Origin: an uncultured Chloroflexia bacterium
GTDB taxonomy: Bacteria > Chloroflexota > Limnocylindria > Limnocylindrales > CSP1-4
DNA: 64,000 nucleotides
Assembly (NCBI GenBank): GCA_963828165.1
Contig: CAWHDR010000001.1
Coordinates: 928,001-992,000 of the forward strand
Direction of reading: 5' to 3'
Part shown: in pieces, positions 11,215 to 58,009 of the stretch
Layout: each line of letters starts with the position of its first letter
Numbering within the stretch: position 1 is the stretch's first letter
Notes under the pieces: model-generated
Seen by the model: the letters and a program-made list of their open reading frames with translations, nothing else
Told to the model about the DNA's origin: nothing
Database searches by the model: none
Translations under genes and position numbers: made by a program

Positions 11215-12000
11215 TCATCGATCGAGATCGGCGCGCGGCGCCCCCGGCGGCCGGGCGGTCAACTTCCGGGAGCGGCGCACGCGCAATCGATGGAGGAGGT
11301 ACCGACCGACCACGCGCAGGGTCGAGAGCCCGTAGACGACGCTGCGCCTGAAGCCGACGGAGCTCGCCTCCTCGAAATAGCGCGTGGGGACGGCGATCTC
11401 GCCGATCCGCCGGCGCATCCCCGCGGCAACGACCTGGGCGATGAGCTCCTGGTCGAAGACGAAGTCGTCGCTGTTCCGGTCGTACGGAATGGTCTCGAGC
11501 AGCTGCCGGCTGTAGGCCCGCAACCCGGTGTGGTACTCGGACAGACGGAGGCCGAAGGCGACGTTCTCGACGATCGTGAGGAAGCGATTGCTGATGTACT
11601 TCCAGCGCGGCATGCCGCCAGCCAGTGGGTCGCCCAGGAACCGGCTGCCGAGCATGAGGTCATGGGTCCCGGCGGCGATCGGCGCGATGAGGGCGGGGAT
11701 GCGCGTCGCGTCGTACTGGTAATCGGGGTGGAGCATCACGACGATGTCGGCGCCGGCGGACAGCGCGGCGTCGTAGCACGTCTTCTGATTGCCGCCGTAG
11801 CCGCGATTCTGGGAATGGATGATGACGTCGAGCCCGAGGTTCCTCGCGATGTCGACGGTCTCGTCCTTGGACACGTCGTCCACGAGGATCACCTTGTCCA
11901 CGATGTCGTGCGGGATGTCGGCGTACGTGCGTTCGAGCGTCCGGGCAGCGTTATACGCGGGCATCACGATGACGAGGTTCGGGCGGGTGGGCGGTGTCAC
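11215..12000 (-). CDS. GT2 glycosyltransferase (polyprenol-phosphate/DPM1-like)
   Basis: VMPAYNAA, LVDDVSKD, NRGYGG, HPDYQY, GSRF. Confidence 0.9.
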   Translation of the reverse strand: MTPPTRPNLVIVMPAYNAARTLERTYADIPHDIVDKVILVDDVSKDETVDIARNLGLDVIIHSQNRGYGGNQKTCYDAALSAGADIVVMLHPDYQYDATRIPALIAPIAAGTHDLMLGSRFLGDPLAGGMPRWKYISNRFLTIVENVAFGLRLSEYHTGLRAYSRQLLETIPYDRNSDDFVFDQELIAQVVAAGMRRRIGEIAVPTRYFEEASSVGFRRSVVYGLSTLRVVGRYLLHRLRVRRSRKLTARPPGAPRADLDR

Positions 12001-37241: not shown

Positions 37242-37269
37242 TCCGTTTGCGTCCGCCAATGACACCTGA
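37242..37269 (+). repeat. Array site R1
   Basis: TCCGTTTGCGT-CCGCCA-ATGACACCTGA. Confidence 0.85.
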
Positions 37270-37339
37270 GACCGCTGCGCCTTCCCCGCGCATTCGTGCC
37301 TCGCTACGACTTAGTCGGCCCGCCGCCGTTCACCGCCTT

Positions 37340-37714
37340 CTAATTCCTGACCGTGTAGACGGTGTGATTGGCGATCCGATTCGCGAGGACGCGGTCGAGC
37401 ACGTCCGCTCGCGGCAGTTCTACGCGCTGATCGACGCTGTCGGAGCTCCAGGTGGCAGTCAACTCCAGCACGCCAGTCAGCTGGCTGAACAACGTCGATA
37501 GGTCGGCATGCAGGCTCGATCGATGCTCCTTGGGAAGCTTCCAACCGGATGGGCGATCCCATTCGCGGACCATCTCGCACCCGTGGAGAGACAACGTCGG
37601 CTCCTCGTCATCCCGGTCGATTTCCCAGTCGAGGGAGACGGGCGCGCGGTCCCAGCCGATGAGGTTCGCTCGATCCGACGGAGTCATCGGGCGCACGACG
37701 TAGACCATGCACAT
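37340..37714 (-). CDS. Cassette ORF 1, hypothetical
   Basis: 124 aa; TACCCT 6 nt before ATG. Confidence 0.65.
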   Translation of the reverse strand: MCMVYVVRPMTPSDRANLIGWDRAPVSLDWEIDRDDEEPTLSLHGCEMVREWDRPSGWKLPKEHRSSLHADLSTLFSQLTGVLELTATWSSDSVDQRVELPRADVLDRVLANRIANHTVYTVRN

Positions 37715-37773
37715 GCCGCGAGGGTAGCAGTCGGCCCGCTGTTGGGCCCTCCCGTCGTCACAGCTCCCCGTGG

Positions 37774-37801
37774 TCGCAATGCGTCCGCCAATGACACTAG
37801 G
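37774..37801 (+). repeat. Array site R2
   Basis: TCGCAATGCGT-CCGCCA-ATGACACTAGG; contains the stop of ORF 2. Confidence 0.85.
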
Positions 37802-38402
37802 GCGATAAATCCTCGCACTGAGTCAGAGTCTTCCCCGGCTTCACGAATTGACAAAGCGCGTCGTAGGAATCGTCGGAGCCTTTGAGCACGAGATACTTCG
37901 GGTAGGCGCCGAGGTGGTCGCCCTCGCCTTCATTGGTTTCCATCAGCAGAGCCGTTCGAGCTGGCACGCCGGGGATCCGGTATACCGTCCTCTTCTCGCC
38001 TTCATAGGACGTCGTGCCAGATGCCTCGAGACCATTGGGCCAATCGAAGCTTCGACCAATGGACACCAGGTATGGGTCCCCATTGACGGTTGCCGTGGCG
38101 GCCTCGAGAACCTCTGTCACGACCACGTTGCCTGGAAGCTGAACGACGTCCACTCGCGCGCTGACATGCGACCGAGTAGGGTCGGCAACCGCGACGCTCG
38201 GGGCACCGGCCTCGGGGCGGTCTGCCGGCCGGGACAGGCCGAGGACGGCGACGGCGGCCACGACTCCGAGCGCCACTATCGGAACCCAGCGCGGAAGGAG
38301 CGGACCCGGCTCATCCTCGGACGTCGCGACGACGGCGAAGGTCTCGGGCAGCTGACGATGTCGGTCGACATCCGCGAAGACGGTCGCCTGTTGATCACGC
38401 AT
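37797..38402 (-). CDS. Cassette ORF 2, single-TM anchored hypothetical protein
   Basis: 201 aa; WVPIVALGVVAAVAVLGL; TAGCCT 8 nt before ATG. Confidence 0.65.
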   Translation of the reverse strand: MRDQQATVFADVDRHRQLPETFAVVATSEDEPGPLLPRWVPIVALGVVAAVAVLGLSRPADRPEAGAPSVAVADPTRSHVSARVDVVQLPGNVVVTEVLEAATATVNGDPYLVSIGRSFDWPNGLEASGTTSYEGEKRTVYRIPGVPARTALLMETNEGEGDHLGAYPKYLVLKGSDDSYDALCQFVKPGKTLTQCEDLSP

Positions 38403-38429
38403 GTGCTCTCAGGCTACTCGACCTTGGTG

Positions 38430-38457
38430 TGGCTTAGCGTCCGCCAAAGTCACCCGA
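38430..38457 (+). repeat. Array site R3
   Basis: TGGCTTAGCGT-CCGCCA-AAGTCACCCGA; contains the stop of ORF 3. Confidence 0.85.
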
Positions 38458-38833
38458 ATGGAGTAGCGCCAGGATCTGAGCCTGCGCGCATCGGCGAAAC
38501 GGGAAGCGAACTGGGGTCCGAAGCGTGAAGTCCATCCTCGGCAGAGAACATGACCAGTGCGACGACGAGGGCGTCACCGCTGGGCGATCGCAGCCGGAAT
38601 CCCTTTCGGTCATACGTCAGCGCCTTCAGAGCGTCCTCGCCCCCGATCGAGCGGACCTCGGCCGGTGAGACTTCGTCGATGGACTCGATGTCGAGCCCAT
38701 CCGGCATGTGAAGGAAGCTCACGCCCTTGAAGAGAACGTCGATCCGTGTCGGATTGTCGTTGTCCCGCTGGCTCCTCAGCAGCAGTTGGGCGTGAGTAAC
38801 CGCGTACTCCCATATGACGTAGCGGCGCGTCAC
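38450..38833 (-). CDS. Cassette ORF 3, hypothetical (start uncertain)
   Basis: WEYAVTHAQLLLRS...RIDVLFKGV motif. Confidence 0.65.
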   Translation of the reverse strand: MTRRYVIWEYAVTHAQLLLRSQRDNDNPTRIDVLFKGVSFLHMPDGLDIESIDEVSPAEVRSIGGEDALKALTYDRKGFRLRSPSGDALVVALVMFSAEDGLHASDPSSLPVSPMRAGSDPGATPFG

Positions 38834-38929
38834 CGCGCAAACGAAAACGGGGTGCCAAGGACCGCACCCCCGAGGACGAAGGTGACCCTCCCAAACGGCC
38901 GCATTGCGCGATGTTACAGGCCACCCCGG

Positions 38930-38957
38930 TCGCAAAGCGTTCGCGAATGTCACTCGA
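38930..38957 (+). repeat. Array site R4
   Basis: TCGCAAAGCGT-TCGCGA-ATGTCACTCGA; contains the stop of ORF 4. Confidence 0.85.
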
Positions 38958-39660
38958 CCGGGGGCTTGAAACCGTAGCGTGCCTGCTCGTCCGCGATCGT
39001 GTAGCTGAGATCGGGCCGGAAATCCCGAGTTGTAATCAGCAATCCCTCTAATCCATAGAAGCTCTCGTCGAATGGGCGCAGGCCGATCGCCCGGCAGTAT
39101 CGATCGACCAGTGCCGGCGTCAGTCGGTCCGCCACGCGGCGGGCCCCGTAGGAACGGAGGTCCTCGTAGGGCTGCGGACGCCCGGTCGCGACGAAGACCA
39201 AACGGCCACCATCATCACGTCCCACATGAACGGTGCGTTCATGGTTGAGAAAATCAGTTGGGTGGTCGGCGATGAGCTGGAAGCGAAGGGTCTCATGGCT
39301 CGGTACCGGCCACCACACGATGTAGACGGCGCGGCATCTCATCATCTCCGCGATCACACCGACCGGAGCTTCGTCAGCACCGGTGTGCTGGTTGCTGAAG
39401 TAGGCCGTCCAATCGGACCGCGTGCCAAGGAGTAGCTCGCGATTGCCTAGGCTCATCGGTTCCAGGGCAGATAGGACCTCGCGAAGCGGCCCAACCACGC
39501 CCAGCTCGACCGGCTGCAGATCGAGTCCTCGACGCCATGCGGCCAGGACTTCGGCAACTTCGCCGATCGCGGCGTCGAAGAACGCGTAGGCGCCCGTGAT
39601 GGGCCACAGCTCCGCTCCGAGAAGCGGTTTTGGCTCGGGCGCCGCGGGTTCGTCGTGCAT
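38950..39660 (-). CDS. Cassette ORF 4, hypothetical
   Basis: 236 aa; WTAYFSN...GRPQPYE...RRVADRLT...FDESFY; TACGCT 7 nt before ATG. Confidence 0.7.
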   Translation of the reverse strand: MHDEPAAPEPKPLLGAELWPITGAYAFFDAAIGEVAEVLAAWRRGLDLQPVELGVVGPLREVLSALEPMSLGNRELLLGTRSDWTAYFSNQHTGADEAPVGVIAEMMRCRAVYIVWWPVPSHETLRFQLIADHPTDFLNHERTVHVGRDDGGRLVFVATGRPQPYEDLRSYGARRVADRLTPALVDRYCRAIGLRPFDESFYGLEGLLITTRDFRPDLSYTIADEQARYGFKPPVE

Positions 39661-39697
39661 GCGAACAAGCGTATCGGGCGGGACCAGGCCGCTCGGC

Positions 39698-39725
39698 TCA
39701 GTCTGTGTCCGCCAATGTCACCCGG
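39698..39725 (+). repeat. Array site R5
   Basis: TCAGTCTGTGT-CCGCCA-ATGTCACCCGG; contains the stop of ORF 5. Confidence 0.88.
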
Positions 39726-40053
39726 TCGACTGCCGAGATTGGCGGGCGGCGCGATCCGCTGCGTAGCGCCTCGCCACGGCCTTCAGCTCGTCAATCGAGG
39801 CATCGCTTCGAGCACTCCACGCGTCCCATTCGCCGTGGGGGTAGCTCAGCAATTGGAAGAGCGCGGCCTGGACGACGTGGTATGTCTGGTCGGTCCCAAT
39901 CCCCTCCGGCCACACATCGAGGACCGCCCGAACCGTGTCTCGCTCGTAACCGAAGAGGGTCGGGAATTCCCAGTCGGGATAGAGCGGGCCATCGACCGTG
40001 GCAAGAAGGACGCTATGGATGACATCGCGATCGCGTTCCGTCAACGCCGCCAT
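39718..40053 (-). CDS. Cassette ORF 5, hypothetical
   Basis: 111 aa; YPDWEFPTLFG...LLSYPHG; TACACT 6 nt before ATG. Confidence 0.7.
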   Translation of the reverse strand: MAALTERDRDVIHSVLLATVDGPLYPDWEFPTLFGYERDTVRAVLDVWPEGIGTDQTYHVVQAALFQLLSYPHGEWDAWSARSDASIDELKAVARRYAADRAARQSRQSTG

Positions 40054-40077
40054 TGCCGGAGTGTAGGCATCGCGAGG

Positions 40078-40105
40078 TCTCACAGTGTTTGGGAATGTCA
40101 CCCGA
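40078..40105 (+). repeat. Array site R6
   Basis: TCTCACAGTGT-TTGGGA-ATGTCACCCGA. Confidence 0.85.
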
Positions 40106-40139
40106 AAGCGGGGGCACTCCGACCTGTCATGCTCCACGT

Positions 40140-40439
40140 GTGTCCACGGAGTCGGCCGAGAAGACCGAGCAGTTTGAGTACGAGGTCGCGGAGGCTCTTG
40201 CGCTCCCGCAGCACGGCATCGGCGCGATTGGCTGGATCCGTGTCGGGACAGTTCGAATTGGCGACCAAGTAGCCGTCGACGATGACGCAGCTGAGCCATA
40301 CACGGTTCGCGGAGTAGGAATTCTCGACGGGCTGGGACCGAAAGCGGGTAGCGCCAACATCGAGCTTCTCCTCGACGACTACGGCACGAAACGATTGGCG
40401 CCAGGCGTTCCAATTCGCAGGTGGAGAGACTTCACCTAG
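40140..40439 (+). CDS. Cassette ORF 6, small beta-barrel (EF-Tu domain II-like, inferred)
   Basis: 99 aa FEYEVAEAL...GIGAIGWIRVGTVRIGDQV...; CATGCT 6 nt before GTG. Confidence 0.55.
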   Translation: MSTESAEKTEQFEYEVAEALALPQHGIGAIGWIRVGTVRIGDQVAVDDDAAEPYTVRGVGILDGLGPKAGSANIELLLDDYGTKRLAPGVPIRRWRDFT

Positions 40440-40455
40440 GGCGAGGGCAACCGCA

Positions 40456-40483
40456 CCGTTACGTATCCGCCAATGTCACTCGA
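40456..40483 (+). repeat. Array site R7
   Basis: CCGTTACGTAT-CCGCCA-ATGTCACTCGA; contains the stop of ORF 7. Confidence 0.85.
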
Positions 40484-41087
40484 GCGTGAGCTTTCCGTGT
40501 GCTCCCGTCAGGGAGATCGACCACGCCCCGGATGAACCCGTCACGGCGATCGGTAGGTCGTGGTCGCCGAGCCAGTCGGCGAGACGTTCTTGGTCTGCCG
40601 CCACCGACAGAAGCGTCAGACTGACCGAACCATCCCGATGGCGAACGGCGGCGGCTCCCGGCACCTGCATGCCGTCTCCCCATTGGATGAAGAACGGAAG
40701 CCCGGGCTCGCGCACGGCGATTTCGACACCTACGCTGCGCCAGGCGATGAGGGCACCCCGGGGATCGACTCGCGAACCAGGAAGGACGGGCTGGCCGAGC
40801 CTTCGCCCGACAGCGTCGATCGAATCCGTTCGAACAGCCCAGCCGAGCGGGCTTCCCGGAAGCGCGGAGGCGACCCATCGCCCGAAGGCGCTCCGACTCG
40901 CCGCCTCGCGGTCGGCCACCGCGACGAGCTCGAGATAGGACTCGCCGAGCGGGACGATCCAATTGGCCGTACCCCACGCTGGATGCCGCCCACCCTCAAC
41001 GGAGACAAGCCCGTACCGAGCCTTCAGCCTGGCCACCTCGGCCGCGAGGTCACGGACGGGCAGGATCACGTGATCGATCGCTAGCAC
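40476..41087 (-). CDS. Cassette ORF 7, VOC/Glyoxalase_3 family
   Basis: IDHVILPVRDL, GGRHPAWGTAN, YLELV, LPFFIQW. Confidence 0.85.
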   Translation of the reverse strand: MLAIDHVILPVRDLAAEVARLKARYGLVSVEGGRHPAWGTANWIVPLGESYLELVAVADREAASRSAFGRWVASALPGSPLGWAVRTDSIDAVGRRLGQPVLPGSRVDPRGALIAWRSVGVEIAVREPGLPFFIQWGDGMQVPGAAAVRHRDGSVSLTLLSVAADQERLADWLGDHDLPIAVTGSSGAWSISLTGAHGKLTLE

Positions 41088-41114
41088 AGCTCACTCAAGG
41101 TGGTACCCGCTGGG

Positions 41115-41173
41115 CTCACAGGTGTCCGGGAAGGTTTCTCAGATCGGCCACGTATGGGGGCTATGTCACCTGT
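41115..41173 (+). repeat. Degenerate array sites R8a/R8b
   Basis: GTGT-CCGGGA-AGGTTTC (41122-41138) and GTAT-GGGGGCT-ATGTCACCTGT (41152-41173); the latter contains the stop of ORF 8. Confidence 0.6.
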
Positions 41174-41567
41174 CAGGTTCGGCCGCGTCGAACGGTGGCA
41201 GGGCGTGCTGCCCGAACGATTCCTGCCACCCAACATAGGCGACCGACAACCCGTCACTTACGTCGGTCAGGTCCGTCGTGGCACCGGTCAACTCGTTGGT
41301 GCCGACCACTTTGATCCAAGGCAATCGCTCGATAGCCCACATCGTATTGCTCACCGCCTCGTTCGTCACGGCGACGACGAGCTCTCGCACGAACTGCTGC
41401 CCTTCGGGCGAAAGGGCCTGAAAGGCAACCCCGACATCCCGTGCGCCAGGAAACCGCATCCGCCCCTCGAACGTGGCGAACCAGTTACTGATCGTGTAGT
41501 CGAACCCGGTCTCGACGATCTCCCGACCGAGGGCAGCGAGCGCGTCCATTTCGTCATCGATGGTCAC
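41166..41567 (-). CDS. Cassette ORF 8, hypothetical
   Basis: 133 aa; DLTDVSDGLSVAYVGWQESF; CATACT 6 nt before GTG. Confidence 0.65.
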   Translation of the reverse strand: MTIDDEMDALAALGREIVETGFDYTISNWFATFEGRMRFPGARDVGVAFQALSPEGQQFVRELVVAVTNEAVSNTMWAIERLPWIKVVGTNELTGATTDLTDVSDGLSVAYVGWQESFGQHALPPFDAAEPDR

Positions 41568-41590
41568 GGTGAGAGTATGCGGCCGGGACC

Positions 41591-41640
41591 CATGGGATCG
41601 GGTCGAAGCGAGGGAGCCCTTGCGACTGTCCACAAGCGTC
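41591..41640 (+). repeat. 50-bp exact direct repeat (second copy at 41917-41966)
   Basis: CATGGGATCGGGTCGAAGCGAGGGAGCCCTTGCGACTGTCCACAAGCGTC; both copies end at the TC of a site's left arm. Confidence 0.95.
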
Positions 41641-41913
41641 TCACAGTGTTCGGGAATGTCACCCGAAAGCGGGGGCACTCCGACCTGTCGGGCTCCACGT
41701 GTGTCCACGGAGTCGGCCGAGAAGACCGAGCAGTTTGAGTACGAGGTCGCGGAGGTTCTTGCGCTCCCGCAGCACGGCATCGGCGCGATTGGCTGGATCC
41801 GTGTCGGGACAGTTCGAATTGGCGACCAAGTAGCCGTCGGCGATGACGCAGCTGAGCCATCCACGGTTCGCGGAGTAGGAATTCTCGACGGGCTGGGACC
41901 GAAGGCGGGTAGC
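41638..41913 (+). pseudogene. Truncated duplicate of site R6 plus cassette ORF 6 (includes site R9, 41639-41666)
   Basis: 276 bp matching 40077-40352 with 7 substitutions; R9 = TCTCACAGTGT-TCGGGA-ATGTCACCCGA. Confidence 0.9.
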
Positions 41914-41964
41914 CCGCATGGGATCGGGTCGAAGCGAGGGAGCCCTTGCGACTGTCCACAAGCG

Positions 41965-41992
41965 TCGCTTGGTGTCCGCCAATGTCACCCGA
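41965..41992 (+). repeat. Array site R10
   Basis: TCGCTTGGTGT-CCGCCA-ATGTCACCCGA. Confidence 0.88.
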
Positions 41993-42036
41993 AGCAAAGA
42001 GCGTTGGTAGCGGCCGGCAGGGGCGCCAGTCCGTCC

Positions 42037-42459
42037 CTAGACGGCCTCAAACATGTGTGCTAGGGACGTAGCGATCAAGGACAGCGAGCCGGGGTCCACG
42101 ATTACCTGTGCCGTCACCTTCCAGGCCGGTTCGTGCCATTCGTGGACAGGATCGACGCCCAGCACCACCTGGATGGCGACGTGTCCGATGCGGTCGTGCC
42201 AACATGTCAACTGGAAGTTGCCGTCGCCGTAGGAGTCCCAGCCTCGTGGGCCTTCCCAGCCTTTCCAATCCCGGGCGAGGCCCTGGAAAAAGTCCACCAG
42301 CTCACCGCCCTGGATGTAGTGACCGGGAAACACCGGTTCTGACGCTGTGATTCCGGGGAGGTCGAGAGAAACGACGAACGACTGCCCAACCGGGTCGTCG
42401 GTTTGGAAGGTCAGCGTGGCTCCCGGCTGGCCGATGGTCACCGAGGGCGTGGGTTCCAT
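42037..42459 (-). CDS. Cassette ORF 10, DUF6228-like hypothetical protein
   Basis: LVDFFQGLARDWKGWEGPRGWDS...HDRIGHV...W; TACAGT 6 nt before ATG. Confidence 0.7.
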   Translation of the reverse strand: MEPTPSVTIGQPGATLTFQTDDPVGQSFVVSLDLPGITASEPVFPGHYIQGGELVDFFQGLARDWKGWEGPRGWDSYGDGNFQLTCWHDRIGHVAIQVVLGVDPVHEWHEPAWKVTAQVIVDPGSLSLIATSLAHMFEAV

Positions 42460-42590
42460 CCGACGACTGTAGCAACCACAGGCCGCATTTGGCAGGCCGG
42501 GCAGCACTCGAGCTGCATGTCCGCAAGGCTCAGGTCGGGCTGCGGACGATCTGAATGACCGCTGGACTCGGCAGTGACGCCGCGTGATCC

Positions 42591-42618
42591 TCCCAAAGTG
42601 TCCGGGAATGTCACCTGA
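42591..42618 (+). repeat. Array site R11
   Basis: TCCCAAAGTGT-CCGGGA-ATGTCACCTGA. Confidence 0.85.
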
Positions 42619-42771
42619 CGAAGTGGAGAGGTGGTGTGTACGCGTGCCCGCTCGCACCAGACATCGCGGTTCGGTCGTTCCATGTGCGGGCTGTTCGAGT
42701 CATGCTCAACGGCAACGCTCCGAGATTGGAGGACCGGGATGCTCCCGCCGGCGAGAAGACCGTCTGACAGG

Positions 42772-43182
42772 ATGCCTCGGCAGGCCGCGCAGGGTGGCAG
42801 GTCGCCGTGGCTGCTGGCTGTGCTCGTGTTCCTCTCCGTCAGCCTGGTGACCCTCGGCCCGACGAGCTGGCCTCATGTGGTCGACGCGGATTGTCCGGCG
42901 CCAGAGTTCATGCTCGATTCCGACGGCGATTGCATGGCCCGAGGCACGCTCATCGTCATGACCGGCGCGCCTTCCGACGGCAAAACTCGCGCGGACCTCG
43001 AACGCGCCATTGAACCGCTCGGCGGACGGATCGAGACGGACGTCGACGCTCTGAGGATCTACGGAGTTCTGTTTCCGTCAGCGGACACCCTTGCAGAGCT
43101 CGACGAACTGGAGGCCGCCCTCGAAGCGCTCGGATTCTGGGTCAGCCGCTCATACACCGGGGAACTGTTCGCCACGACCTGA
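42772..43182 (+). CDS. Cassette ORF 11, secreted/membrane-anchored hypothetical protein (start uncertain)
   Basis: WLLAVLVFLSVSLVTL followed by a small alpha/beta domain. Confidence 0.55.
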   Translation: MPRQAAQGGRSPWLLAVLVFLSVSLVTLGPTSWPHVVDADCPAPEFMLDSDGDCMARGTLIVMTGAPSDGKTRADLERAIEPLGGRIETDVDALRIYGVLFPSADTLAELDELEAALEALGFWVSRSYTGELFATT

Positions 43183-43290
43183 GCCACGCCCCTGCCGGCG
43201 TGCGGAATCCGCGCCGCGGCGCGCCCGGCTGGTCCGATCGGAGCCCGAGTCATCGGTGGTCGTCACCTTCGGGTGTAGAGCACGCAAGCG

Positions 43291-43318
43291 TCAGTCACTG
43301 TGCGTCGATGTCACCAGG
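43291..43318 (+). repeat. Degenerate array site R12
   Basis: TCAGTCACTGT-GCGTCG-ATGTCACCAGG; ORF 12 stops in its left arm. Confidence 0.7.
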
Positions 43319-43732
43319 GCCATCCCAGGCCGCCATGACCTGTTCTTGATCCGTCTTGCTTTCGCCGAGGTGCGTGACGCCTCCGGCAGTCACCTCGTGG
43401 CGGGAGCTCAGGTCCGACCACGGCTCGGCGTAGGCGAATCCCTCGAGTACATCCAGAACACCGTCCTGAACGAACAGCACGAACCCGGCCCCATGCTCCA
43501 AGCCTTCGATGGTTGCGGTGACGTCCCCAAGGTCCATCCTCCCGGGCTTCACGGGGGCGGGCGCAGCATCCGTCGCGACATCGAGCTCCGTGATGAAGCC
43601 CACGCCTGTCATCTGGCGCGACGCCACCTGGCAACGCTCGACTTGGCGGCGAAGCGCATTCATGACGGGGTGGTCCGGCGCGAGGATGGCCGCGATCACG
43701 TCCCGCTCCAACAAGCTCAGCGCGTCGGCCAT
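43295..43732 (-). CDS. Cassette ORF 12, hypothetical
   Basis: RQMTGVGFITEL...GLEHGAGFVLFVQDGVLDVLEGFAYAEPW; TAACGT 7 nt before ATG. Confidence 0.72.
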   Translation of the reverse strand: MADALSLLERDVIAAILAPDHPVMNALRRQVERCQVASRQMTGVGFITELDVATDAAPAPVKPGRMDLGDVTATIEGLEHGAGFVLFVQDGVLDVLEGFAYAEPWSDLSSRHEVTAGGVTHLGESKTDQEQVMAAWDGPGDIDAQ

Positions 43733-43758
43733 GCCGGGCACGTTACAACGCGGTTGTG

Positions 43759-43786
43759 TCCCTCAGTGTCCGCCAATGTCACCCGG
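43759..43786 (+). repeat. Array site R13
   Basis: TCCCTCAGTGT-CCGCCA-ATGTCACCCGG; ORF 13 stops in its left arm. Confidence 0.88.
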
Positions 43787-44317
43787 TCCGGCCACGATAC
43801 GGAAAACCATCCATTGGTCGTGGAAACCCGCGCAGAGCGGGACATCCGGGCTCCACTTGGCTGATGCGCGACCGAAGGCGGCGATGGTACGGGCTAGCAG
43901 GTGGAGATTGCGCGCCTCGTCCGCAGCGTTACCGCGCCACGTGGTTGCTAACAGGGCAGCAAGTTCAGGCACAGCAGGCCCAGAACGGACCTGTGACGGA
44001 TCGAAGTCCGATGCCCAACTGTCGTCACCAACGGACTCAGACTCATAAGAGAGACACTCGAAGAACGCACTACTCCATCCGTTATCGACGTCAAACTCCC
44101 AATAGACCGCGGCCGTGGTCTTGTCCAGTCGGTTGCCCAAGGCGTCGATGCTGTCCGCAAGGGCAGAGGTATACGAACTGAGATCGACCGAGGACACGGC
44201 CGCGGCCGCCTCAGGATCAAGGCGACGGCAGTCTTCGGCGAATGTGTACTCGAGACCATCCCAATCGCGGCTGGCGATCCAGGCTCTCATCGCTTCCACG
44301 CCCGCATCGATATCCAC
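43763..44317 (-). CDS. Cassette ORF 13, hypothetical acidic protein
   Basis: AVYWEFDVDNGWSSAFFEC...DDSWASD...CAGFHDQ; TACCCT 6 nt before GTG. Confidence 0.7.
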   Translation of the reverse strand: MDIDAGVEAMRAWIASRDWDGLEYTFAEDCRRLDPEAAAAVSSVDLSSYTSALADSIDALGNRLDKTTAAVYWEFDVDNGWSSAFFECLSYESESVGDDSWASDFDPSQVRSGPAVPELAALLATTWRGNAADEARNLHLLARTIAAFGRASAKWSPDVPLCAGFHDQWMVFRIVAGPGDIGGH

Positions 44318-44342: not shown

Positions 44343-44681
44343 TCACATGGCGTGATCTCCCCCGAGGTCTTCCGCCTCTTCCAGTACCAGCAACGTCGAC
44401 AGACCTGGTGCGATCTCGCGCAGGTTTCGGCCCGCGGCGCGCATCGCGTCCGAAGCGAGACCCGCGTCCATCGCCGCGCGATCGTCGAATTCCATCGCCG
44501 TGACCAACACAAGGTCGGTCTCGCCTCCCAGGGCCTCGGAAACGCGCTGCACCTTGGTCGAGCGCAAGCCCGGCGTCTCGGCAACGAGAGGCAGATGTTC
44601 CGTCGCGTAGCGACGCTCGAACTCGGCGAGCGCGTCGGGGCCGCCCTCAGGGCGGCGATACAGGGCGAGTAGCGTGGTCAT
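44343..44681 (-). CDS. EthD family reductase
   Basis: LLALYRRP...FERRYATEHLPLVAETPGL...MEFDDRAAM. Confidence 0.85.
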   Translation of the reverse strand: MTTLLALYRRPEGGPDALAEFERRYATEHLPLVAETPGLRSTKVQRVSEALGGETDLVLVTAMEFDDRAAMDAGLASDAMRAAGRNLREIAPGLSTLLVLEEAEDLGGDHAM

Positions 44682-45493
44682 GCGGTCACCTCCTCAGTGG
44701 TCGTCGCGGTCGTTCCGGCGCGCTGGCGCGCGATCGCCTCGGTCGATCGATAGAACTCGCCGAGCGCTTCGGTGGCGATCACCGGTCGTTCCGAGAACGC
44801 CTCGTGGCCGGCCTCGGGCAGGACGAGCAGGCGCCCGTCCAGGACGGAGCGCGACAGCCGCCAGGCATCGTCGACCGGGACGAACGGGTCGCGGTCACCG
44901 GCCGCCACGAGCGTCGGCGGATCGATCGTCCGGATCTCGCGCGGCGTCAGCAACGATTGGGTCGCCACGTCGCGCGCGATAGCCGGGAGCAGCACCCGCC
45001 AGGCACCCGCACCCTGCTCGGGATCGTGCCGGCGCGCGAGGTCGGCCGCCCACGTGGGATCGTCACGGTCGATCCGGATCGGGTCCATCAGCCGTCGGGC
45101 GACGCTGGCGCGCGGTTCTCGGTCGGTCGTGATGCCGACGACGACGAGGGTCCTCAATCGGTCGGGCGCCCGGACGGCGACGCGCAGCGCGGTCATCGCC
45201 CCAAGCGAGAACCCGAGCAGGTGGAACGTCTCCAGCCCCAGGGCGTCGGCGAACGCCAGCAGGTCGTCTGCGAGCCAGTCGGCCGAGAATCCACCGGTCG
45301 CCGTGTCCCAGCGCGTCCGTCCATGACCGCGGGCGTCCGGCGTGTAGCAGCGAAAGGCCTCCGTGAGCGTCGGCAGCTGGCCGCGAAAGTCTCGGGCGGC
45401 GTCGGATGTCGCGCCGTGCAGGAGGATCAGCGGCGGGCCGGCGCCGGCGACGTCGTACCCGACGGTCAGGCCGTTGGCGTCGATGGTGGGCAT
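44678..45493 (-). CDS. Alpha/beta hydrolase
   Basis: LILLHG, PDARGHG, GFSLG nucleophile elbow, GDRD, AGH. Confidence 0.88.
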   Translation of the reverse strand: MPTIDANGLTVGYDVAGAGPPLILLHGATSDAARDFRGQLPTLTEAFRCYTPDARGHGRTRWDTATGGFSADWLADDLLAFADALGLETFHLLGFSLGAMTALRVAVRAPDRLRTLVVVGITTDREPRASVARRLMDPIRIDRDDPTWAADLARRHDPEQGAGAWRVLLPAIARDVATQSLLTPREIRTIDPPTLVAAGDRDPFVPVDDAWRLSRSVLDGRLLVLPEAGHEAFSERPVIATEALGEFYRSTEAIARQRAGTTATTTEEVTA

Positions 45494-45563
45494 CACGGGC
45501 GATGCTACGACGTCCGCCCGGCGACGACCCACCGAGCCAGAGCCCGGACCTACAATCGGGTCC

Positions 45564-46973
45564 ATGACCGACCCCGAGCCCGGCACGCGCCTCGAACGCG
45601 ATTCGATGGGCGAGATGCCCGTCCCGGCCGATGCCCTCTACGGCGCATCGACCCAGCGCGCAGTCCTGAACTTCCCGATCTCGGGGCAGCCCTTCCCACC
45701 CGGGTTCATCCGCGCCCTCGCCCTGGTGAAGCTCGCGGCCGCGGAAACGAACGGGGAGCTCGGACTCCTCGAGCCGGACGTCGCGCGGGCGATCGCGACT
45801 GCGGCGGCAGCCGTCGCCGACGGCGACCACGACGCGCAATTCCCGATCGATATCTACCAGACGGGATCGGGAACCTCGACCAACACGAACATGAACGAGG
45901 TCGTGGCGCACCTCGCCTCGAGGCGGCTGGGCGAGGGTCGAAACGTCCACCCGAACGATCACGTCAATCGCTGTCAGAGCTCGAACGACGTGATCCCGAC
46001 CGCGCTTCAGCTCTCGGCGGCGATGGCGATCGAGGAAGCGCTGCTGCCGGCGCTCATCGAGCTGCAGACCGCGCTGGCCGCGAAGGCCGACGAGTTCTGG
46101 CCGGTGGTCAAGACCGGGCGAACCCACCTCCAGGACGCGACGCCGATCCGGCTGGGCCAGGAGTTCCGTGGCTATGCCGGACAGGTCGAGGAAGCCGTGC
46201 GGCGAGCCCTGGCCGCCCAGGCCGAGTTGCTGTCCGTGCCGCTCGGGGGCACGGCCGTCGGGACCGGCATCAACGCCCATCCCGAGTTCGCGGCACGGAC
46301 CTGCCAGCGCCTGGCCGAGCTGACCGGCCTCCCCGTGCGCGAGACCCGGAACCATTTCCACGCCCAGGCCTCGCTCGACGCGGTGATCGCCGCGCACGGC
46401 GCGATCCGGACGATCGCGCTGGGCCTGTGGAAGATCGCCTCGGACGTGCGGCTCATGGGCATGGGCCCGCGCGCCGGCCTCGCGGAGCTGTCGCTGCCTG
46501 AGACCCAGCCGGGTTCGAGCATCATGCCGGGCAAGGTGAACCCAGTCATCGTCGAGTCGCTGACGATGGTGGTGGCGCGGGTCGTCGGCAATGACGCGAC
46601 CGTGGCGTTCGCGCAGACCGGCTCGCTGTTGGAACTCAACGTGATGCTGCCGGTCACGGCGGCCGCGATGCTCGAATCGATCGGTCTGCTGGCCGCCGCC
46701 GCCCGCAACTTCAGCGACCGAACGATCACCGGGCTGACCGCCACGGAGCGCGGTCCGCAGCTGGTCGAGCAGGGATTGATGCTCGCGACGGCGCTCGCGC
46801 CCGTGATCGGCTATGACGACGCTGCGACGCTGGCCAAGGAGGCGTTCAAGTCCGGGCGCACGATCCGGGAGCTGGCCCTGGAGCGCGGCATGAGCTCCGA
46901 GGACCTCGACCGGCTGCTGGATCCGGCCGCGATGACCGAGCCGGGCCTCGACGGCGGACCCGCCGGCGGCTGA
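45564..46973 (+). CDS. fumC: Class II fumarate hydratase
   Basis: ERDSMGE, QTGSGTSTN, GRTHLQDATP, GSSIMPGKVNP. Confidence 0.9.
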   Translation: MTDPEPGTRLERDSMGEMPVPADALYGASTQRAVLNFPISGQPFPPGFIRALALVKLAAAETNGELGLLEPDVARAIATAAAAVADGDHDAQFPIDIYQTGSGTSTNTNMNEVVAHLASRRLGEGRNVHPNDHVNRCQSSNDVIPTALQLSAAMAIEEALLPALIELQTALAAKADEFWPVVKTGRTHLQDATPIRLGQEFRGYAGQVEEAVRRALAAQAELLSVPLGGTAVGTGINAHPEFAARTCQRLAELTGLPVRETRNHFHAQASLDAVIAAHGAIRTIALGLWKIASDVRLMGMGPRAGLAELSLPETQPGSSIMPGKVNPVIVESLTMVVARVVGNDATVAFAQTGSLLELNVMLPVTAAAMLESIGLLAAAARNFSDRTITGLTATERGPQLVEQGLMLATALAPVIGYDDAATLAKEAFKSGRTIRELALERGMSSEDLDRLLDPAAMTEPGLDGGPAGG

Positions 46974-51416: not shown

Positions 51417-54400
51417 GTGACATTGGCCCGACGCGCGCGCCCTGAGACCACGTCCGCCGCACCCGAGGGCTCGGACGAGGCCGTCCTGAGGAAACGCGTC
51501 GCTGAGCTCGAGACGCGCGACGCGGAGCGAGCCGACGCGGAGCGCCTCCAGGACGCTCTCTACCGGATCGCCGAAGCCGCCAGCGCGGCACCCGACCTGG
51601 ACGACTTCTACCGGGTGATGCACGGCATCGTCGGGGAGCTCATGGATGCGCGGAATTTCTATATCGCCCTCTATGACGCCGACCGCAGTACGATCAACTT
51701 CCCGTACTACGTCGATACTGTCGATCAGGACCTCCCCAATCCCGATGCCTGGGAACCGTTCGGTGCAGGCAACGCCCGTGGGCTGACCGCTTACGTCCTG
51801 CGAACCGGTGAGCCGGCCCTCGTGACGCGCGAGCGCTGGGAGCGATTGGTCGAGGAAGGGCAGATCGACATGATCGGCGAGGCCGGCGAGGACTGGCTCG
51901 GCGTTCCGCTGCATTGGGACGGCAACGTCATCGGGATCGTCGTCGTGCAGACGTACGACGAGGGTCTCCACTACCGCGAGCAGGATGCCGACCTGCTGAC
52001 GTACGTAGGTCGGCACATCGCGGCTGCCTTGGCTCGAGCGCGGGCGATCGAGGAAACACGCCAGCGCAACGCCGAACTGACCCTCGTGAACGAGATCGGG
52101 CAGGCGCTCGCCGCGCAGCTCGAGTTCGACGCGATCATCGACATCGTCGGCGAGCGCATCCGATCGATCTTCGACGTCCACGCGATGTTCATCGCGTTGT
52201 ACGACACGGCGACCGACACGATCGCCTTCCCATACGACATCGATGCTGGAGAGCGCTTCGTGCGCACCAGCTTCCCGCTAGGGCCGGGCATGACCTCGAC
52301 GGTGATCCGGACGAAGCGGCCGCTACGCGTCGGCTCCTTGCAGCAACAGATCGCCCTGGGCGCGATCGAGGTCGGGGGTACGCCAACGCAATCCTGGCTC
52401 GGCGTGCCGATCCTGTCCGGCGAGCGCGTCATCGGCGTCGTCGGGCTGGAGGCCGTGCGCGCCTTTGCCTTCAGCGAGTCGGACGAGCGGCTGCTCACGA
52501 CCCTCGCGTCGAGCATGGGCGTCGCGCTCGACAACGCCCGGCTGCTCGGCGAGACGAAGCGACTGCTCGCCGAGACGGATGAGCGCGCCGCCGAGTTGGC
52601 GATCATCAACGGCGTCCAGCAGGGACTCGCGGCCGAGCTCGATCTCCAGGCGATGTACGAGCTCGTGGGCGACAAGATCCAGGAGATCTTCGACGCGCAG
52701 GTCGTCGACATCGGCATCTACGATCTCGACGCCGGCGTCATCCACTACCCGTACGCGATCGAGCGCGGCGTCCGCTACCCGGACGAACCCGTGCCGATCA
52801 CCGAGGTGAGCCGCGCCCAGATCGCGGCGGGTAAGCCGGTGCTCATCAACGACGTCCCGGCCTGGCAGCTCGAGCAAGGACATGAGATGGCGGTCGTCCA
52901 GGGTGAGCCGTCCCTTTCGATGCTCACCGCGCCACTCACCGCCGGTGGCGCCGTGCGCGGACGGATCGGCCTCCAGAACCTCGACCACACGGATGCGTTC
53001 TCCGATGCGGATGTGCGACTCCTGACCACCATCGCGGCGAGCCTCAGCGTCGCGCTCGAGAATGCGCGGCTGTTCGGGGAGACGCGGCGGCAGGCGGCCG
53101 AGCTCGCGATCGTCAACCGCGTCGGCCAGGCGTTGAGTGCGCAGCTCGACCTCGACGCCCTGATCGACCTCGTGGGCGAGCAGATGCGCGAGACGTTCGC
53201 GGCGGACATCGTCTACGTCGCGCTGCTGGATGTGGACGCCGGAGAGATCCAGTTCCCGTATTACTCCGAGGACGGCACCTCCCAGCTTCAGCCGGCGCTC
53301 CCCTACGGCACGGGCTTGACCTCACGGATCGTGCGCGACCGAGCGCCGCTCCTCCTGCGCCACCCAGCGGAGTGGGAGGCTCTGGGCGACCGCGGGATCG
53401 GGACCCAGGCGATGACCTACCTTGGCGTCCCGATCCTCCAGGGCGAGGCGGCGATCGGCGTCATCAGTGTCCAGAGCACCACGCAGGAGGGCCGCTTCGG
53501 CGATGAGGACGTCCGCCTGCTCTCGACGCTCGCGGCGAGTGTCGGGTCCGCGATCTCGAACGCTCGGCTGTACGAGGAGACGCGCCGGCGCGCGCGCGAG
53601 ATGGCGGCGCTCGCCGAGGTCGGTCGCGAGATCTCCGCGAACCTGGACCTGACAGCGGTCCTGCAGCAGATCGTGGAACTTGCGCAGTCGTTGCTCGGCG
53701 TCGATTCGACGGCCCTGTTCCTGGCCCAACCGGATGGCAAGACCCTCAAGGCGATCGTCGCGATCGGCGCCCTCGCCGAACCCGTCCTCAACGATTCGAT
53801 CGAGGTCGGCGAGGGGATCATCGGCGACATCGTGCTCCGCCGCACTGCCGAGGTCATCAACGACGTCAATGCCGACGGCCGCAGCGTCGAGATCCCGGGC
53901 ACCGACCCCGACATCGAGGAGCGGCTGATGGTCGCTTCGCTGGTGGCCCGTGACCAGGTCGTGGGCGGGTTCGCCGCCTGGCGGAGCATGCCGAGCCGGC
54001 AGTTCACGGACAGCGACCTCGACCTGCTCGTCGGCATGTCACAGCAGGCCGCGATCGCCATCGACAATGCTCGCCTGTTCCGCGAGGGCGAGGCAGCCCG
54101 CGAGGCGGCCGAGGACGCGGACCGCGCAAAGAGCACGTTCCTCGCGGCCATGAGCCATGAGATCCGCACGCCGATGAACGCGGTCATCGGCATGAGCGGC
54201 CTGCTGCTCGACACCACGCTCGATGACGAGCAACGCGACTACGCCGAGACGATCCGCACCTCGGGCGACGCGCTGCTGACGATCATCAACGACATTCTCG
54301 ATTTCTCGAAGATCGAGGCCGGCAGGGTCGAGCTCGACCACCGTCCCTTCGCCCTCGCTCCGTGCATCGAGGGAGCGATCGATGTCCTCGCGCCGACCGC

Positions 54401-55694
54401 AGCGGCGAAGCAACTCGAGCTCGTCTACACCATCGCCGAGGACCTGCCGCGCGCGATCCTGGGCGATGAAGGACGGCTCCGCCAGATCGTGCTCAACCTG
54501 CTGTCGAACGCAGTGAAGTTCACGGAGGCGGGTGAGGTCGAGCTCGCGGTCACCGGCCAGCCGCTCGATCCCGCAGCGCCGGATGCACGCTGGCGGTTCA
54601 CGGTGGAGGTCCGCGACACGGGCATCGGGATCCCGGCGGACCGGGTCGGACAGCTCTTCCAGTCGTTCAGCCAGGCCGATGCCTCGATCAGCCGTCGCTA
54701 CGGTGGGACGGGACTCGGTCTGGCCATCAGCCGCCGACTCGCGGAACTGATGGACGGCTCGATCACGGCGCAGAGCGCCGGCGTGGCCGGGCGGGGCAGT
54801 ACCTTCCGGCTGACGTTCGGCGCCGACGTGGATGAGTCGACCCCGGCGCCAGGACCGGCGATCGACTACGACCTCGACGGGCGTCACGTGCTCGTCGTCG
54901 ACGACAACGCGGCCAATCGCCGGATCTTGGTGACCCTGCTGGGGCGCTGGGGGATGACCTCCGAAGCCACCGCGTCCCCACGCGAGGCGCTCGGGTGGGT
55001 AACGGCCGGCCGGCGGTTCGACCTCGCCCTGCTCGACCTCCATATGCCCGAGCTCGATGGCCTGAGCCTGGCCACCGCCATCCGGTCCTCGGGTGGGGGC
55101 GCGGAGACACCGATCCTGATCCTTTCCTCGCTGGGCGTGCACGACCGCACCAACGACGCCGTCGCCGCGTACCTGGTCAAGCCGGTGAAGCCGTCTGCGC
55201 TCCACGATTCGCTCGCCACCGTGCTGGCTGGTCAGGCGAGCGCCGTGCCGGTCCGCGTTGCAACGACCGGGATCGATCACGACCTGGGGGCGCGCCATCC
55301 CCTGCGCATCCTGCTGGCCGAGGACAATCCGGTGAACCGCAAGATCGCGCTGCGCCTGCTCGATCGGATGGGCTACGCCGCCGACGTCGCCGGCAACGGG
55401 CTCGAGGCGATCGCCGCCGTGGAGGGCGCCCGCTATGACGTCGTCCTCATGGACATCCAGATGCCGGAGCTCGACGGCCTCGAGGCGACCCGGCGGATCC
55501 GACAGCGGTGGCCCGACGGCAGCGGCCCCCGGATCGTGGCGATGACCGCGAACGCCATGGAAGGGGACCGCGAGGCGTGCATCGCGGCGGGCATGGATGA
55601 CTACATCTCCAAGCCGATCAGGCCGGAGGCACTCGCGGCAGCCCTCACGGCGGCAGCACTGAGCGCCACGGCGCAGGCCGGGGGCGCCCCGTGA
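51417..55694 (+). CDS. Hybrid sensor histidine kinase: 5 GAF + HisKA + HATPase + 2 REC
   Basis: Repeated WLGVP...F..D..LL...A.A.DNARL units; SHEIRTPMN; N/G boxes; two receiver domains. Confidence 0.93.
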
Positions 55695-56797
55695 ACGGCG
55701 GCCGCGTCCTGGTCGTCGACGACACGCCATTCAACCGGCGACTATTGGTCCGACTCCTCGCAGACATCGGGCATTCGACGGTCGAGGCAGCGGACGGTCG
55801 CGCGGCACTCGCCGTGCTGCGCGACGACCGAGCAGAGCCGGTGGATGTGGTCCTGCTGGACATCGTCATGCCGGTGATGGACGGCTACGAGACGCTGGCG
55901 AATCTCAAGGCCGACGACGCGCTCCGGGACCTTCCGGTCATCGTGATCTCGGGGGTCGATGAGCTCGACAGCGTCGTGCGCTGCATCCAGATGGGGGCTG
56001 CCGACTATCTGCCCAAGACCGTCGCACCCGAGATCCTCCGGGCGAGGATCGAGGCCTCGATGAGCCAGAAGCGATTCCGCGACCTCGAACGCGCCACGGT
56101 CGACGAACAGCGACGCCTCCTGGCAACGATCGATCGCCAACGGTCCGAACTCTCCCGGTTCCTGTCGCCGCAGGTGGCGGCGCTGGTCTCCAGCGAGGAC
56201 GGTGAGGCCATGCTGGCGGGGCATAGGCGCGAGATCACCGCGATGTTCTGCGACCTGCGCAACTTCACGTCCTTTTCCGAGACCGCCGAACCGGAAGAGG
56301 TCCTGGGGTTCCTGCGCGCCTATCACGCGGCGATGGGGCGACTCATCGTCGAGCACGAGGGGACGCTCGAGCACTTCGCCGGCGATGGATTCATGACCTT
56401 CTTCAACGATCCGGTCCTCCAGCCCGACCACGCCGCCCGCGCCGTCGGGCTCGCGGTGGCAATGCGCGAACGATTCGCGGAGATCGCCAGCGACTGGCGG
56501 AAACGCGGTCATGTGCTCGAGATCGGCATCGGGATCGCCACCGGCTACGCGACGCTCGGTCGGATCGGGTTCGAGGGACGCTACGACTACGGGGCCATCG
56601 GCCAGGCCATCATCCTGGCGGCACGCCTCAGCGGCGAGGCTGGCCCGGCGGAGATCCTCATCGCGCCGCGGACGTATGCCGCCGCCGAGGACGCGATCGT
56701 GGCGGCGGCAGCGGGCGAGCGACAGTTGAAGGGCTTCAGCCGGCCGGTCGAGGTGTACGCCGTGTCCGGCATGGCGACCGCCGAGGTGGGCACGTGA
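55691..56797 (+). CDS. Response regulator with a class III nucleotide cyclase domain
   Basis: REC (VVDD, LLDIVMP); [18 protein letters not shown]. Confidence 0.88.
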
Positions 56798-57861: not shown

Positions 57862-58009
57862 GGCGCGAGGGTACTCCCGACCTCGCCCCGCCGCGGCCCG
57901 AACGCGCGGATCGCGTGACGCCGGCCCGACGCAGCCGGGTACGATGCGGCGCACGGCGCCCGCACGCCGTCAGCGTGGTCACACCCATCCTGAGGATCGA
58001 GTGACATCG

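Follow-up and report, generated by a model that had tools for sequence, protein, structure and literature searches.

Integrons are the textbook gene-capture device, and their attC sites are 57-141 nt long. Xer-dependent elements (dif, IMEX arrays and the pdif modules of Acinetobacter) rely on 28-bp sites and carry no recombinase of their own; IMEX are separated by direct repeats, and pdif modules alternate in orientation. Clusters of attC sites without an integron integrase are known as CALIN (Cury et al. 2016, PMC4889954), and a genome survey detected no complete integron in Actinobacteria/Actinomycetota (PMC4889954). The recombinase-associated acquired interbacterial defence (rAID-1) clusters of Bacteroidales are defined by a 5' XerD-like recombinase gene (bioRxiv 10.1101/471110), and the sfx sites of shufflons, the sites of Rci, are asymmetric, with conserved nucleotides only in the core and one arm and a variable other arm (PMC11852207). 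Here, an array of 28-bp repeats was analysed in a 64,000-nt stretch of the genome of an uncultured Chloroflexia bacterium (genome G000, contig C1); this whole stretch is called the window. The repeat, which a first-pass annotation had described as a tyrosine-recombinase site, probably serves as the site at which each mobile gene cassette recombines and forms the cassette's 3' end; it would be the functional counterpart of attC in a system without a linked integrase. A full-text literature search, judged from its search results, found no published description of such arrays in Actinobacteria, Actinomycetota or Chloroflexota, or of dif-like cassette arrays.

The right-arm pattern ATGTCACYNGR occurred 10 times in the window, where 0.46 matches were expected, and 9 of the 10 matches were co-oriented within 38947-43786. 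A position weight matrix (PWM) built from 35 regular-expression seeds of the whole genome was run over all six contigs. It gave 47 matches, of which 46 (scores 18.8-44.8) lay in five co-oriented clusters and one (14.1) was solitary. Since this genome also supplied the seeds, there is some circularity in the scores, but none in the clustering. In the window, the matrix detected 12 strong 28-mers at 37242-43786, to which one decayed copy at approximately 41113-41141 is added. These sites are listed below in window coordinates, which are used throughout unless a contig is named. They are written in motif orientation (plus strand); the cassette genes lie mostly on the minus strand.

37242..37269 (contig position C1:965242), plus strand: site 1, PWM score 35.5; 3' site of the cassette gene at 37340-37714 and last site of the array in gene sense
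37774..37801, plus strand: site 2, PWM score 39.9
38430..38457, plus strand: site 3, the AAAGTCAC variant, PWM score 34.5
38930..38957, plus strand: site 4, PWM score 44.0; its ATG-TCA-C holds the stop codon of the gene at 38950-39660 (minus strand)
39698..39725, plus strand: site 5, with a TCAGTC-type left arm, PWM score 36.2
40078..40105, plus strand: site 6, with the rare left arm TCTCACAGTGT that it has in common with site 9, PWM score 39.0
40456..40483, plus strand: site 7, with a decayed left arm, PWM score 21.7; 3' site of the Glyoxalase_3 cassette
41113..41141, plus strand: decayed site whose right arm is degenerate and whose left arm contains a 1-nt insertion, read from the sequence by eye
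41639..41666, plus strand: site 9, PWM score 41.1
41965..41992, plus strand: site 10, PWM score 39.0
42591..42618, plus strand: site 11, PWM score 43.2; travels with the cassette at 42619-43290
43291..43318, plus strand: site 12, weak, PWM score 20.9
43759..43786, plus strand: site 13, PWM score 38.9; most upstream full site in gene sense
44343..44353, plus strand: resident half-site consisting of the left arm only, TCACATGGCGT; overlaps the stop codon of an EthD-family gene and is the proposed array anchor

In this genome, the conserved 28-bp block has the consensus TCGCWHAGYGT-NCGNNA-ATGWCACYNGR. The repetition and near-invariance of the right arm, as annotated at first pass, were borne out. 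G at right-arm position 10 was found in all 12 strong window sites and in 46/46 sites of the genome; the decayed thirteenth copy has A, and the earlier count of 13 in 13 is one too many if that copy is included. The statement that the left arm keeps only an outer TC and an inner GYGT was correct in that each of these elements is kept in 10 of the 12 window sites, but the left arm has the fuller consensus TCGCWHAGYGT. Across lineages, the core AGYGT-NCGNN-AATGWCACYNGR was conserved and the outer six bases varied; among 447 site contexts, the outer left-arm types included TCGCAA (136), TGGGCC (56), TCAGTC (27) and TCCGCC (18). The left arm matched the reverse complement of the right arm at a mean of 3.7 of 11 positions, compared with 2.8 of 11 for random genomic 11-mers; therefore, the 28-mer is not a pair of inverted arms. 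The mirror symmetry that had been annotated is accordingly weak, and in the larger alignment of 447 contexts it was lost, the outer left arm being lineage-dependent. Since position 2 was G in 103 of these contexts, even the mirrored outer TC disappeared.

No attC-like hairpin was found in 10 single-strand DNA folds (five sites, both strands), which gave z values from -1.9 to +1.15 and no common structure. A CGC-AAA-GCG palindrome in the left arm was considered and rejected: by hand tally, positions 3 and 9 were pairable in approximately 36 of 45 sites, compared with approximately 77% expected from the marginals, without covariation, and the palindrome is also missing from the TGGGCC-type left arm. 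The search against Rfam families returned only two sub-threshold snoRNA matches, neither of them at a site.

Cassettes of the window recurred elsewhere. The cassette at 42591-43318 was found again, with 85-91% identity, in the related genome G152 and in two further arrays of G000; a copy of the Glyoxalase_3 cassette was found in G118, and further window cassettes were copied in G119, G081, G124 and G074. In every well-resolved recurring cassette, the copies had unrelated left flanks (in motif orientation) but the site itself in common. Rare left arms travelled with their cassettes: TCTCACAGTGT was present in both copies of a duplication within the array, TCAGTCAGYGT in three genomes, and a CGTT variant in the window and in G118. 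At the far end of recurring cassettes, homology extended up to the last base before the next site and was then lost, and this next site differed between the copies.

The linkage between site and flank was quantified in the 447 distinct site contexts by comparison of the variable positions 3-6, 9, 12, 15, 16 and 25-28. Pairs that shared only the right flank (n = 34, 25 families) agreed at these positions with a frequency of 0.71-0.91, compared with 0.33-0.55 for random pairs, and their agreement was 0.56 at position -1 and 0.35 at position -2. Pairs that shared only the left flank (n = 26, 20 families) showed an agreement of 0.77 at position -1 and 0.92 at position 2 and were random from position 3 on. 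The same pattern was obtained in a smaller first run. The agreement profiles at the two flanks therefore place the exchange point between positions -1 and +3 of the 28-mer ('...GCGA|C' in gene sense). Beyond this point, only C at +1 (34 of 46 sites) and weak signals further out were seen. As judged from these alignments, the mobile unit is a gene together with its 3' site, and the whole 28-mer is linked to the upstream gene, as with attC. Homologues of the Glyoxalase_3 gene were also found outside arrays in five related genomes (L164 in G035, L165 in G028, and L168-L170). In L165, which has no site, homology was lost exactly where the 28-mer begins. These non-array homologues may be the source gene or a decayed cassette.

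Turnover was also observed at an orthologous locus that follows the same conserved gene in three genomes: G000 had two sites and two cassettes there, G015 one site and one cassette, and G001 four sites and at least three cassettes, and the cassettes were all different. In each of these genomes, the first junction at that locus was a shortened, degenerate site that kept the half next to the exchange point. The first-pass view of the 28-mer as a recombination substrate is upheld by this turnover, by the presence of the same cassettes elsewhere and by the ending of homology at the site. Of that annotation, the observation was largely right and the idea of a recombination site was right; the 11-6-11 Xer geometry is not supported.

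Several points weigh against this reading of the repeat. The homologue L164 keeps the spacer and the right arm next to an unrelated 'left arm', which puts its break at the left-arm/spacer border; the pair L011/L013 differs more in the left arm; and the agreement in left arm and spacer (0.71-0.91) was slightly below that in the right arm (approximately 0.9). A minority of exchanges may therefore occur at the arm/spacer border. Kin are not independent, the linkage rests on 25 and 20 families, which are few and themselves related, and some of the site contexts were gathered with patterns that fix core positions. Neither an excised circle nor an empty-site allele was observed. No recombinase was linked to the arrays, and no recombinase family recurred among the 1170 open reading frames (ORFs) of 24 array loci, whose clustering yielded recurrent families for signalling and transport only. 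A tblastn search of the other array loci with four recombinase queries returned nothing except one serine-recombinase module. Finally, the fixed spacing of 13-14 nt between the site and a -10 box, described below, would also fit a role in transcription.

The organisation of the arrays resembles that of integrons and CALIN in that co-oriented single-gene cassettes each consist of a gene followed by its own site and exchange takes place at the distal end of the site. As in CALIN, the cargo is small and diverse, and several arrays occur in one genome with no integrase nearby; as in integrons, the array begins at a different, simpler resident site. Of the features by which integrons and CALIN are recognised, a gene with its own site, at least two co-oriented sites and cargo that varies between related genomes were found here. 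Unlike attC sites, which are described as folded hairpins, the site is a 28-bp unfolded sequence without the R''/L''/L'/R' organisation. In further contrast to integrons, no tyrosine recombinase of G000 reached the integron-integrase cut-off, many cassettes have their own -10 box rather than relying on Pc, and the hosts include Actinomycetota, a group in which the survey cited above detected no complete integron.

The position of the exchange point bears on the possibility that the repeat is a dif-like 11-6-11 site with a XerC-type arm, a 6-bp centre and a XerD-type arm, recombined at the borders of the central region by a divergent Xer pair or by the host XerC/D. The length of 28 bp, the nearly invariant right arm and the break of L164 at the left-arm/spacer border are in line with such a site, and, of the recombinase families, only Xer-type genes turned up in each of the six array-bearing genomes examined, one of which (G157) showed just two tyrosine recombinases. 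A search with short dif-type motifs found one host dif in G000, ...ACTTCCGATAA-GGTGAG-TTATGTCCGGT..., at C1:2,888,996. Of 61 genomes searched in the genus, 49 contained its core, CCGATAA-GGTGAG-TTATGTCC, 47 of them once and 2 twice, with one match in the control, and this site behaves as expected of dif. The GC skew was too weak to place the terminus, with its minimum at the contig end. Between the array site and TTATGTCCGGT, which is the XerD-side arm of the host dif, only ATGTC is shared; the array site lacks the inner ATAA/TTAT, as had been stated at first pass for the AA/TT of canonical dif. When aligned on ATGTC, the array site and the dif arm agree at only 5 of 11 positions, with the register shifted by two. 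The comparison with the host dif, proposed in the same annotation, went against the 11-6-11 geometry, as the dif found by motifs is canonical and different from the array site. The arms are not inverted repeats, the spacer sequence differs between adjacent sites, and exchange maps to the outer edge of the left arm, not to the 6-bp spacer. Moreover, in 25 families the left arm stayed together with both the right arm and the cassette on its far side, whereas exchange in the central region would split them. A dif-like site is therefore regarded as unlikely. As in dif and IMEX, 28-bp direct repeats separate inserted elements that carry no recombinase of their own, but, unlike dif, IMEX and pdif sites, the array sites have no ATAA/TTAT, have asymmetric arms, are not located at dif, are exchanged at an edge and are all direct within arrays.

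The start of the array was examined together with the sequence downstream of the junctions. In the window, the anchor ACGCCATGTGA and the stop codon of the EthD-family gene overlap; after the anchor come, in gene sense, 13 nt, TACCCT, 6 nt and the GTG of the first cassette gene. The array at C1:1.609 Mb showed the same arrangement of half-site, 13 nt, TANNNT and start codon; a half-site anchor was not found at two other arrays of G000. The 10-mer GAGATCACGC, common to two resident half-sites, was taken as a chance match because it has 27 copies in the genome. TANNNT occurred 13-14 nt past the site (gene sense) in 32 of 257 contexts (12 of 45 in G000), compared with 0-2 at most other offsets and a maximum of 7. 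In 23 of the 36 contexts with such a box at offsets 12-15, ATG or GTG followed 6-8 nt later. This arrangement looks like a leaderless promoter set at a constant distance from the junction.

This spacing, together with the start codons that follow the box, would also be expected if the 28-mer were mainly a transcription element, such as an operator, an activator site or the upstream promoter half of the next gene, that is inherited with the genes while the arrays have another origin. However, the site is linked to the upstream gene and not to the gene it would control. A scan with the sigma-70 promoter consensus called no promoter, no -35-like hexamer was found in the site at a workable distance, and the -10 box is present in only approximately 12% of contexts. 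A role in transcription also leaves unexplained the identity of the 22-nt core across phyla and the turnover exactly at the site edge. As the main function of the 28-mer it is considered highly improbable; a double role in recombination and transcription is possible. No terminators were found at the sites (5 terminator-like matches compared with 3.5 expected).

The observations themselves cover the sites and their arrays, the spread across phyla, the cargo, the linkage between site and upstream gene, and where homology breaks off; beyond them, we infer that a site-specific recombinase, supplied in trans, is responsible for the break. By analogy with Rci at the shufflon sfx sites, this enzyme is most likely of the tyrosine type and would read only one conserved side of the crossover. 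In sfx, conservation only in the core and one arm means that the aligned crossover sits at the edge of the conserved block; the array site likewise has a conserved core, one conserved and one variable arm, and conservation that ends at the exchange point. Unlike here, where sites are direct, whole genes are bounded by them and no recombinase is linked, sfx sites are inverted, drive inversion within one gene and are next to rci. The nearest mechanistic precedent that could be documented is sfx/Rci, and rAID-1 and CALIN are the nearest in organisation.

G000 encodes three tyrosine recombinases (PF00589): a XerD-like protein, a XerC-like protein and a small divergent integrase at C1:454.5 kb. None is near an array, and against the integron-integrase models they scored 112-115 bits (cut-off 265) and 74-84 bits (cut-off 435). 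Tyrosine recombinases were present in all five other array-rich genomes. Homologues of the small integrase occurred in 28 of 131 genomes of the genus and the sites in 45 of 131; since both were found in 10 genomes, compared with 9.6 expected, the small integrase is not associated with the sites and was rejected. XerC/D, both of whose counterparts are present in G000, or another enzyme may act on the site.

The largest array, at C5:13.4-22.6 kb, has the only serine recombinase and the only REP_ORF2-G2P (HUH) Rep of G000 0.85-2 kb upstream. This proximity, the one-sided recognition and the break at an edge would suit a nick of the HUH Rep/relaxase type that starts at one site, stops at the next and yields a single-stranded circle, or a serine recombinase acting at the terminal dinucleotide, in either case derived from an integrative plasmid-like element. 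A homologous recombinase-Rep module adjoins two weak sites in L033 (322-2608), a Chloroflexota contig, with 65% DNA identity over 1711 nt. However, homologues of neither protein were found in the five other array-rich genomes, only two of which had any resolvase-domain gene, and both candidates were set aside; four of the five arrays of G000 have no such neighbour. No Y1 transposase was found in G000, and the folds described above showed no hairpin common to the sites. A tblastn search with the four recombinases gave no match in 85 metagenome loci. All these recombinase negatives rest on incomplete metagenome-assembled genomes (MAGs), which weakens them. An origin of the break in a Rep or serine recombinase appears quite unlikely. 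The module itself, directly upstream of the largest array at C5:9929-13312 (L004 6529-9912), is integrative-plasmid-like and comprises a large serine recombinase gene, a small ORF and the REP_ORF2-G2P Rep gene.

If the 28-mer is a cassette recombination site, as preferred here, the following model can be proposed. In gene sense, a cassette would comprise approximately 13 nt, often a TANNNT -10 box, 6-8 nt, a start codon (leaderless), the gene, 0-90 nt and YCNRGTGWCATTSSCGSACRCTTTGCGA. Exchange would take place no more than two bases away from the final GA of YCNRGTGWCATTSSCGSACRCTTTGCGA, so that the whole site would stay with the upstream gene. A lone half-site (ACRCnnnGYGA), located where a resident chromosomal gene ends, would anchor the array, which would grow and shrink through insertion and excision of gene-plus-site units. 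The conserved GTGWCATT block would be a putative second or accessory binding element. It is a real possibility, held with somewhat less than even confidence, that these arrays represent a new cassette system of soil Chloroflexota/Actinomycetota, with a short, unfolded, one-sided 28-bp site, exchange at its edge and no dedicated integrase, driven in trans, either by XerC/D working in an unorthodox register or by enzymes of a family in which no recombinase has yet been recognised. In such a system, a -10 box would lie 13-14 nt from the junction in each cassette, so that, with every insertion, the preceding site would become the upstream half of a new leaderless promoter.

Arrays of the same kind were found at five places in G000:

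C1:585.6-591.2 kb: array of 10 sites
C1:965.2-971.8 kb: the window array, 12 sites
C1:1609.1-1611.6 kb: array of 5 sites
C1:1778.1-1778.8 kb: array of 2 sites
C5:13.4-22.6 kb: the largest array, 17 sites

The degenerate core pattern was present in 45 of 131 genomes of the genus, the reversed control pattern gave 0 matches, and none of 24 sampled genomes of the sister family contained the core pattern. A scan with one genome per species found at least 147 stretches with the pattern. Among the matches listed, multi-site arrays occurred in Gaiellaceae (15, 6 and 4 sites), in Acidimicrobiia (9), in several 'Actinomycetes' MAGs and in Chloroflexia and Limnocylindria records (14, 4 and 3 sites); single matches in unrelated phyla were, among the same matches and by our own estimate, at about chance level. 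A metagenome scan with the left arm of the genus type gave 91 stretches, and 221 sites in 85 loci, mostly on short contigs, were analysed. Two strong sites were opposed in the metagenome contig L200, at 2442 (minus) and 3622 (plus); this was the only such case seen.

In the window, the array genes are encoded by the minus strand, whereas the motif is written on the plus strand. The genes and the internal duplication are as follows.

44343..44681, minus strand: resident EthD-family gene; its start overlaps the end of the alpha/beta hydrolase gene at 44678-45586, and the array begins at its stop codon
43763..44317, minus strand: first cassette gene, no family; judged by the distance to the -10 box, its proposed start is the GTG at 44317
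43295..43741, minus strand: cassette gene, no family; paralogue in the array at C1:585-591 kb
42739..43182, plus strand: cassette gene for a membrane-anchored protein, no family; opposite in strand to all other cassette genes
42037..42459, minus strand: cassette gene, DUF6228
41638..41913, plus strand: duplicate, 97% identical, of 40077-40352 (site and truncated cassette), followed by a 47-nt duplicate (41917-41963) of 41591-41637
41166..41567, minus strand: cassette gene, no family
40476..41087, minus strand: cassette gene, Glyoxalase_3; of its homologues in related genomes, some have a site and others do not
39718..40053, minus strand: cassette gene, no family
38950..39660, minus strand: cassette gene, no family
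38450..38833, minus strand: cassette gene, no family
37797..38402, minus strand: cassette gene, no family above the cut-off
37340..37714, minus strand: last cassette gene, no family

The GC content was 0.63-0.66 in the array region and 0.70-0.72 outside. The 20 ORFs at 33.4-47.9 kb include genes for a GT4 glycosyltransferase, the alpha/beta hydrolase and a fumarase, and inside the array only Glyoxalase_3 and DUF6228 could be named; no recombinase gene was found among these 20 ORFs, and the window contains no tRNA gene that could serve as a target. The other arrays of G000 add Imm26, DUF7674 and DUF4279 to the cargo. Most of 88 cassette ORFs of related arrays had no family; those named were GNAT, APH, AadA_C-type nucleotidyltransferase, glyoxalase, SnoaL, YCII, TetR, SRPBCC, cupin, L-PSP and DUF6714. 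The cargo is therefore the mixture of small genes usual for cassette arrays, with some immunity-protein families. The longest sense ORF had its stop codon inside the site in 22 of 112 cassettes scored: 16 of these stops were at the TGA of GTGACAT, 5 were near the other end of the site, and 1 was at offset +2.

In their low GC content relative to the flanks, small genes with immunity families (here Imm26 and DUF4279), repetitive intergenic sequences and integron-like look, the arrays resemble rAID-1 clusters. Unlike in rAID-1, no XerD-like gene was found in the flanks of the window array or, by tblastn, at the other loci; the phyla and the repeat sequence differ, and the cargo is broader than immunity genes, most of it belonging to families other than Imm26, DUF4279, DUF7674 and DUF6228 or to none.

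These arrays point to a parallel cassette economy in abundant soil lineages, namely Limnocylindria-type Chloroflexota, Gaiellales and Acidimicrobiia. Their site is far simpler than that of integrons, they have no visible integrase, and attC-based tools cannot detect them; among their cargo are genes of immunity-like, detoxification and aminoglycoside-modifying type. With the exchange point mapped and resident half-sites at hand, the mechanism is open to direct tests, and, if the enzyme is identified, the unfolded, one-sided 28-bp site could serve as a recombination tool.

Some further observations were made in the course of this work. The gene at 42739-43182 (plus strand) belongs to the most widespread cassette, with three copies in G000 and one in G152. 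The segment 41638-41963 is a chimeric cassette, in which the truncated 97% copy with its site is joined to the 47-nt duplicate of the first bases of a neighbouring cassette; within the arrays of L033 and L273, stretches that lie immediately past a junction are duplicated in a similar way. Lone right-arm matches at 57997-58007 and 51441, both on the minus strand and without the rest of the site, were taken as chance. A long GC-rich palindromic element of approximately 55 nt was seen at C1:1377600-1377660 of G000 and in L009 at approximately 7980-8040 and 11547-11639; its inverted copies bound a variable island, which holds a 6-site array in G026 and an unrelated gene for a small membrane protein in G000. 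Elsewhere in the window, the plus-strand gene at 51417-55694 encodes a hybrid histidine kinase of 1425 amino acids with five GAF-domain and two receiver-domain stretches, and it is followed by a receiver-adenylate/guanylate cyclase gene at 55601-56797.

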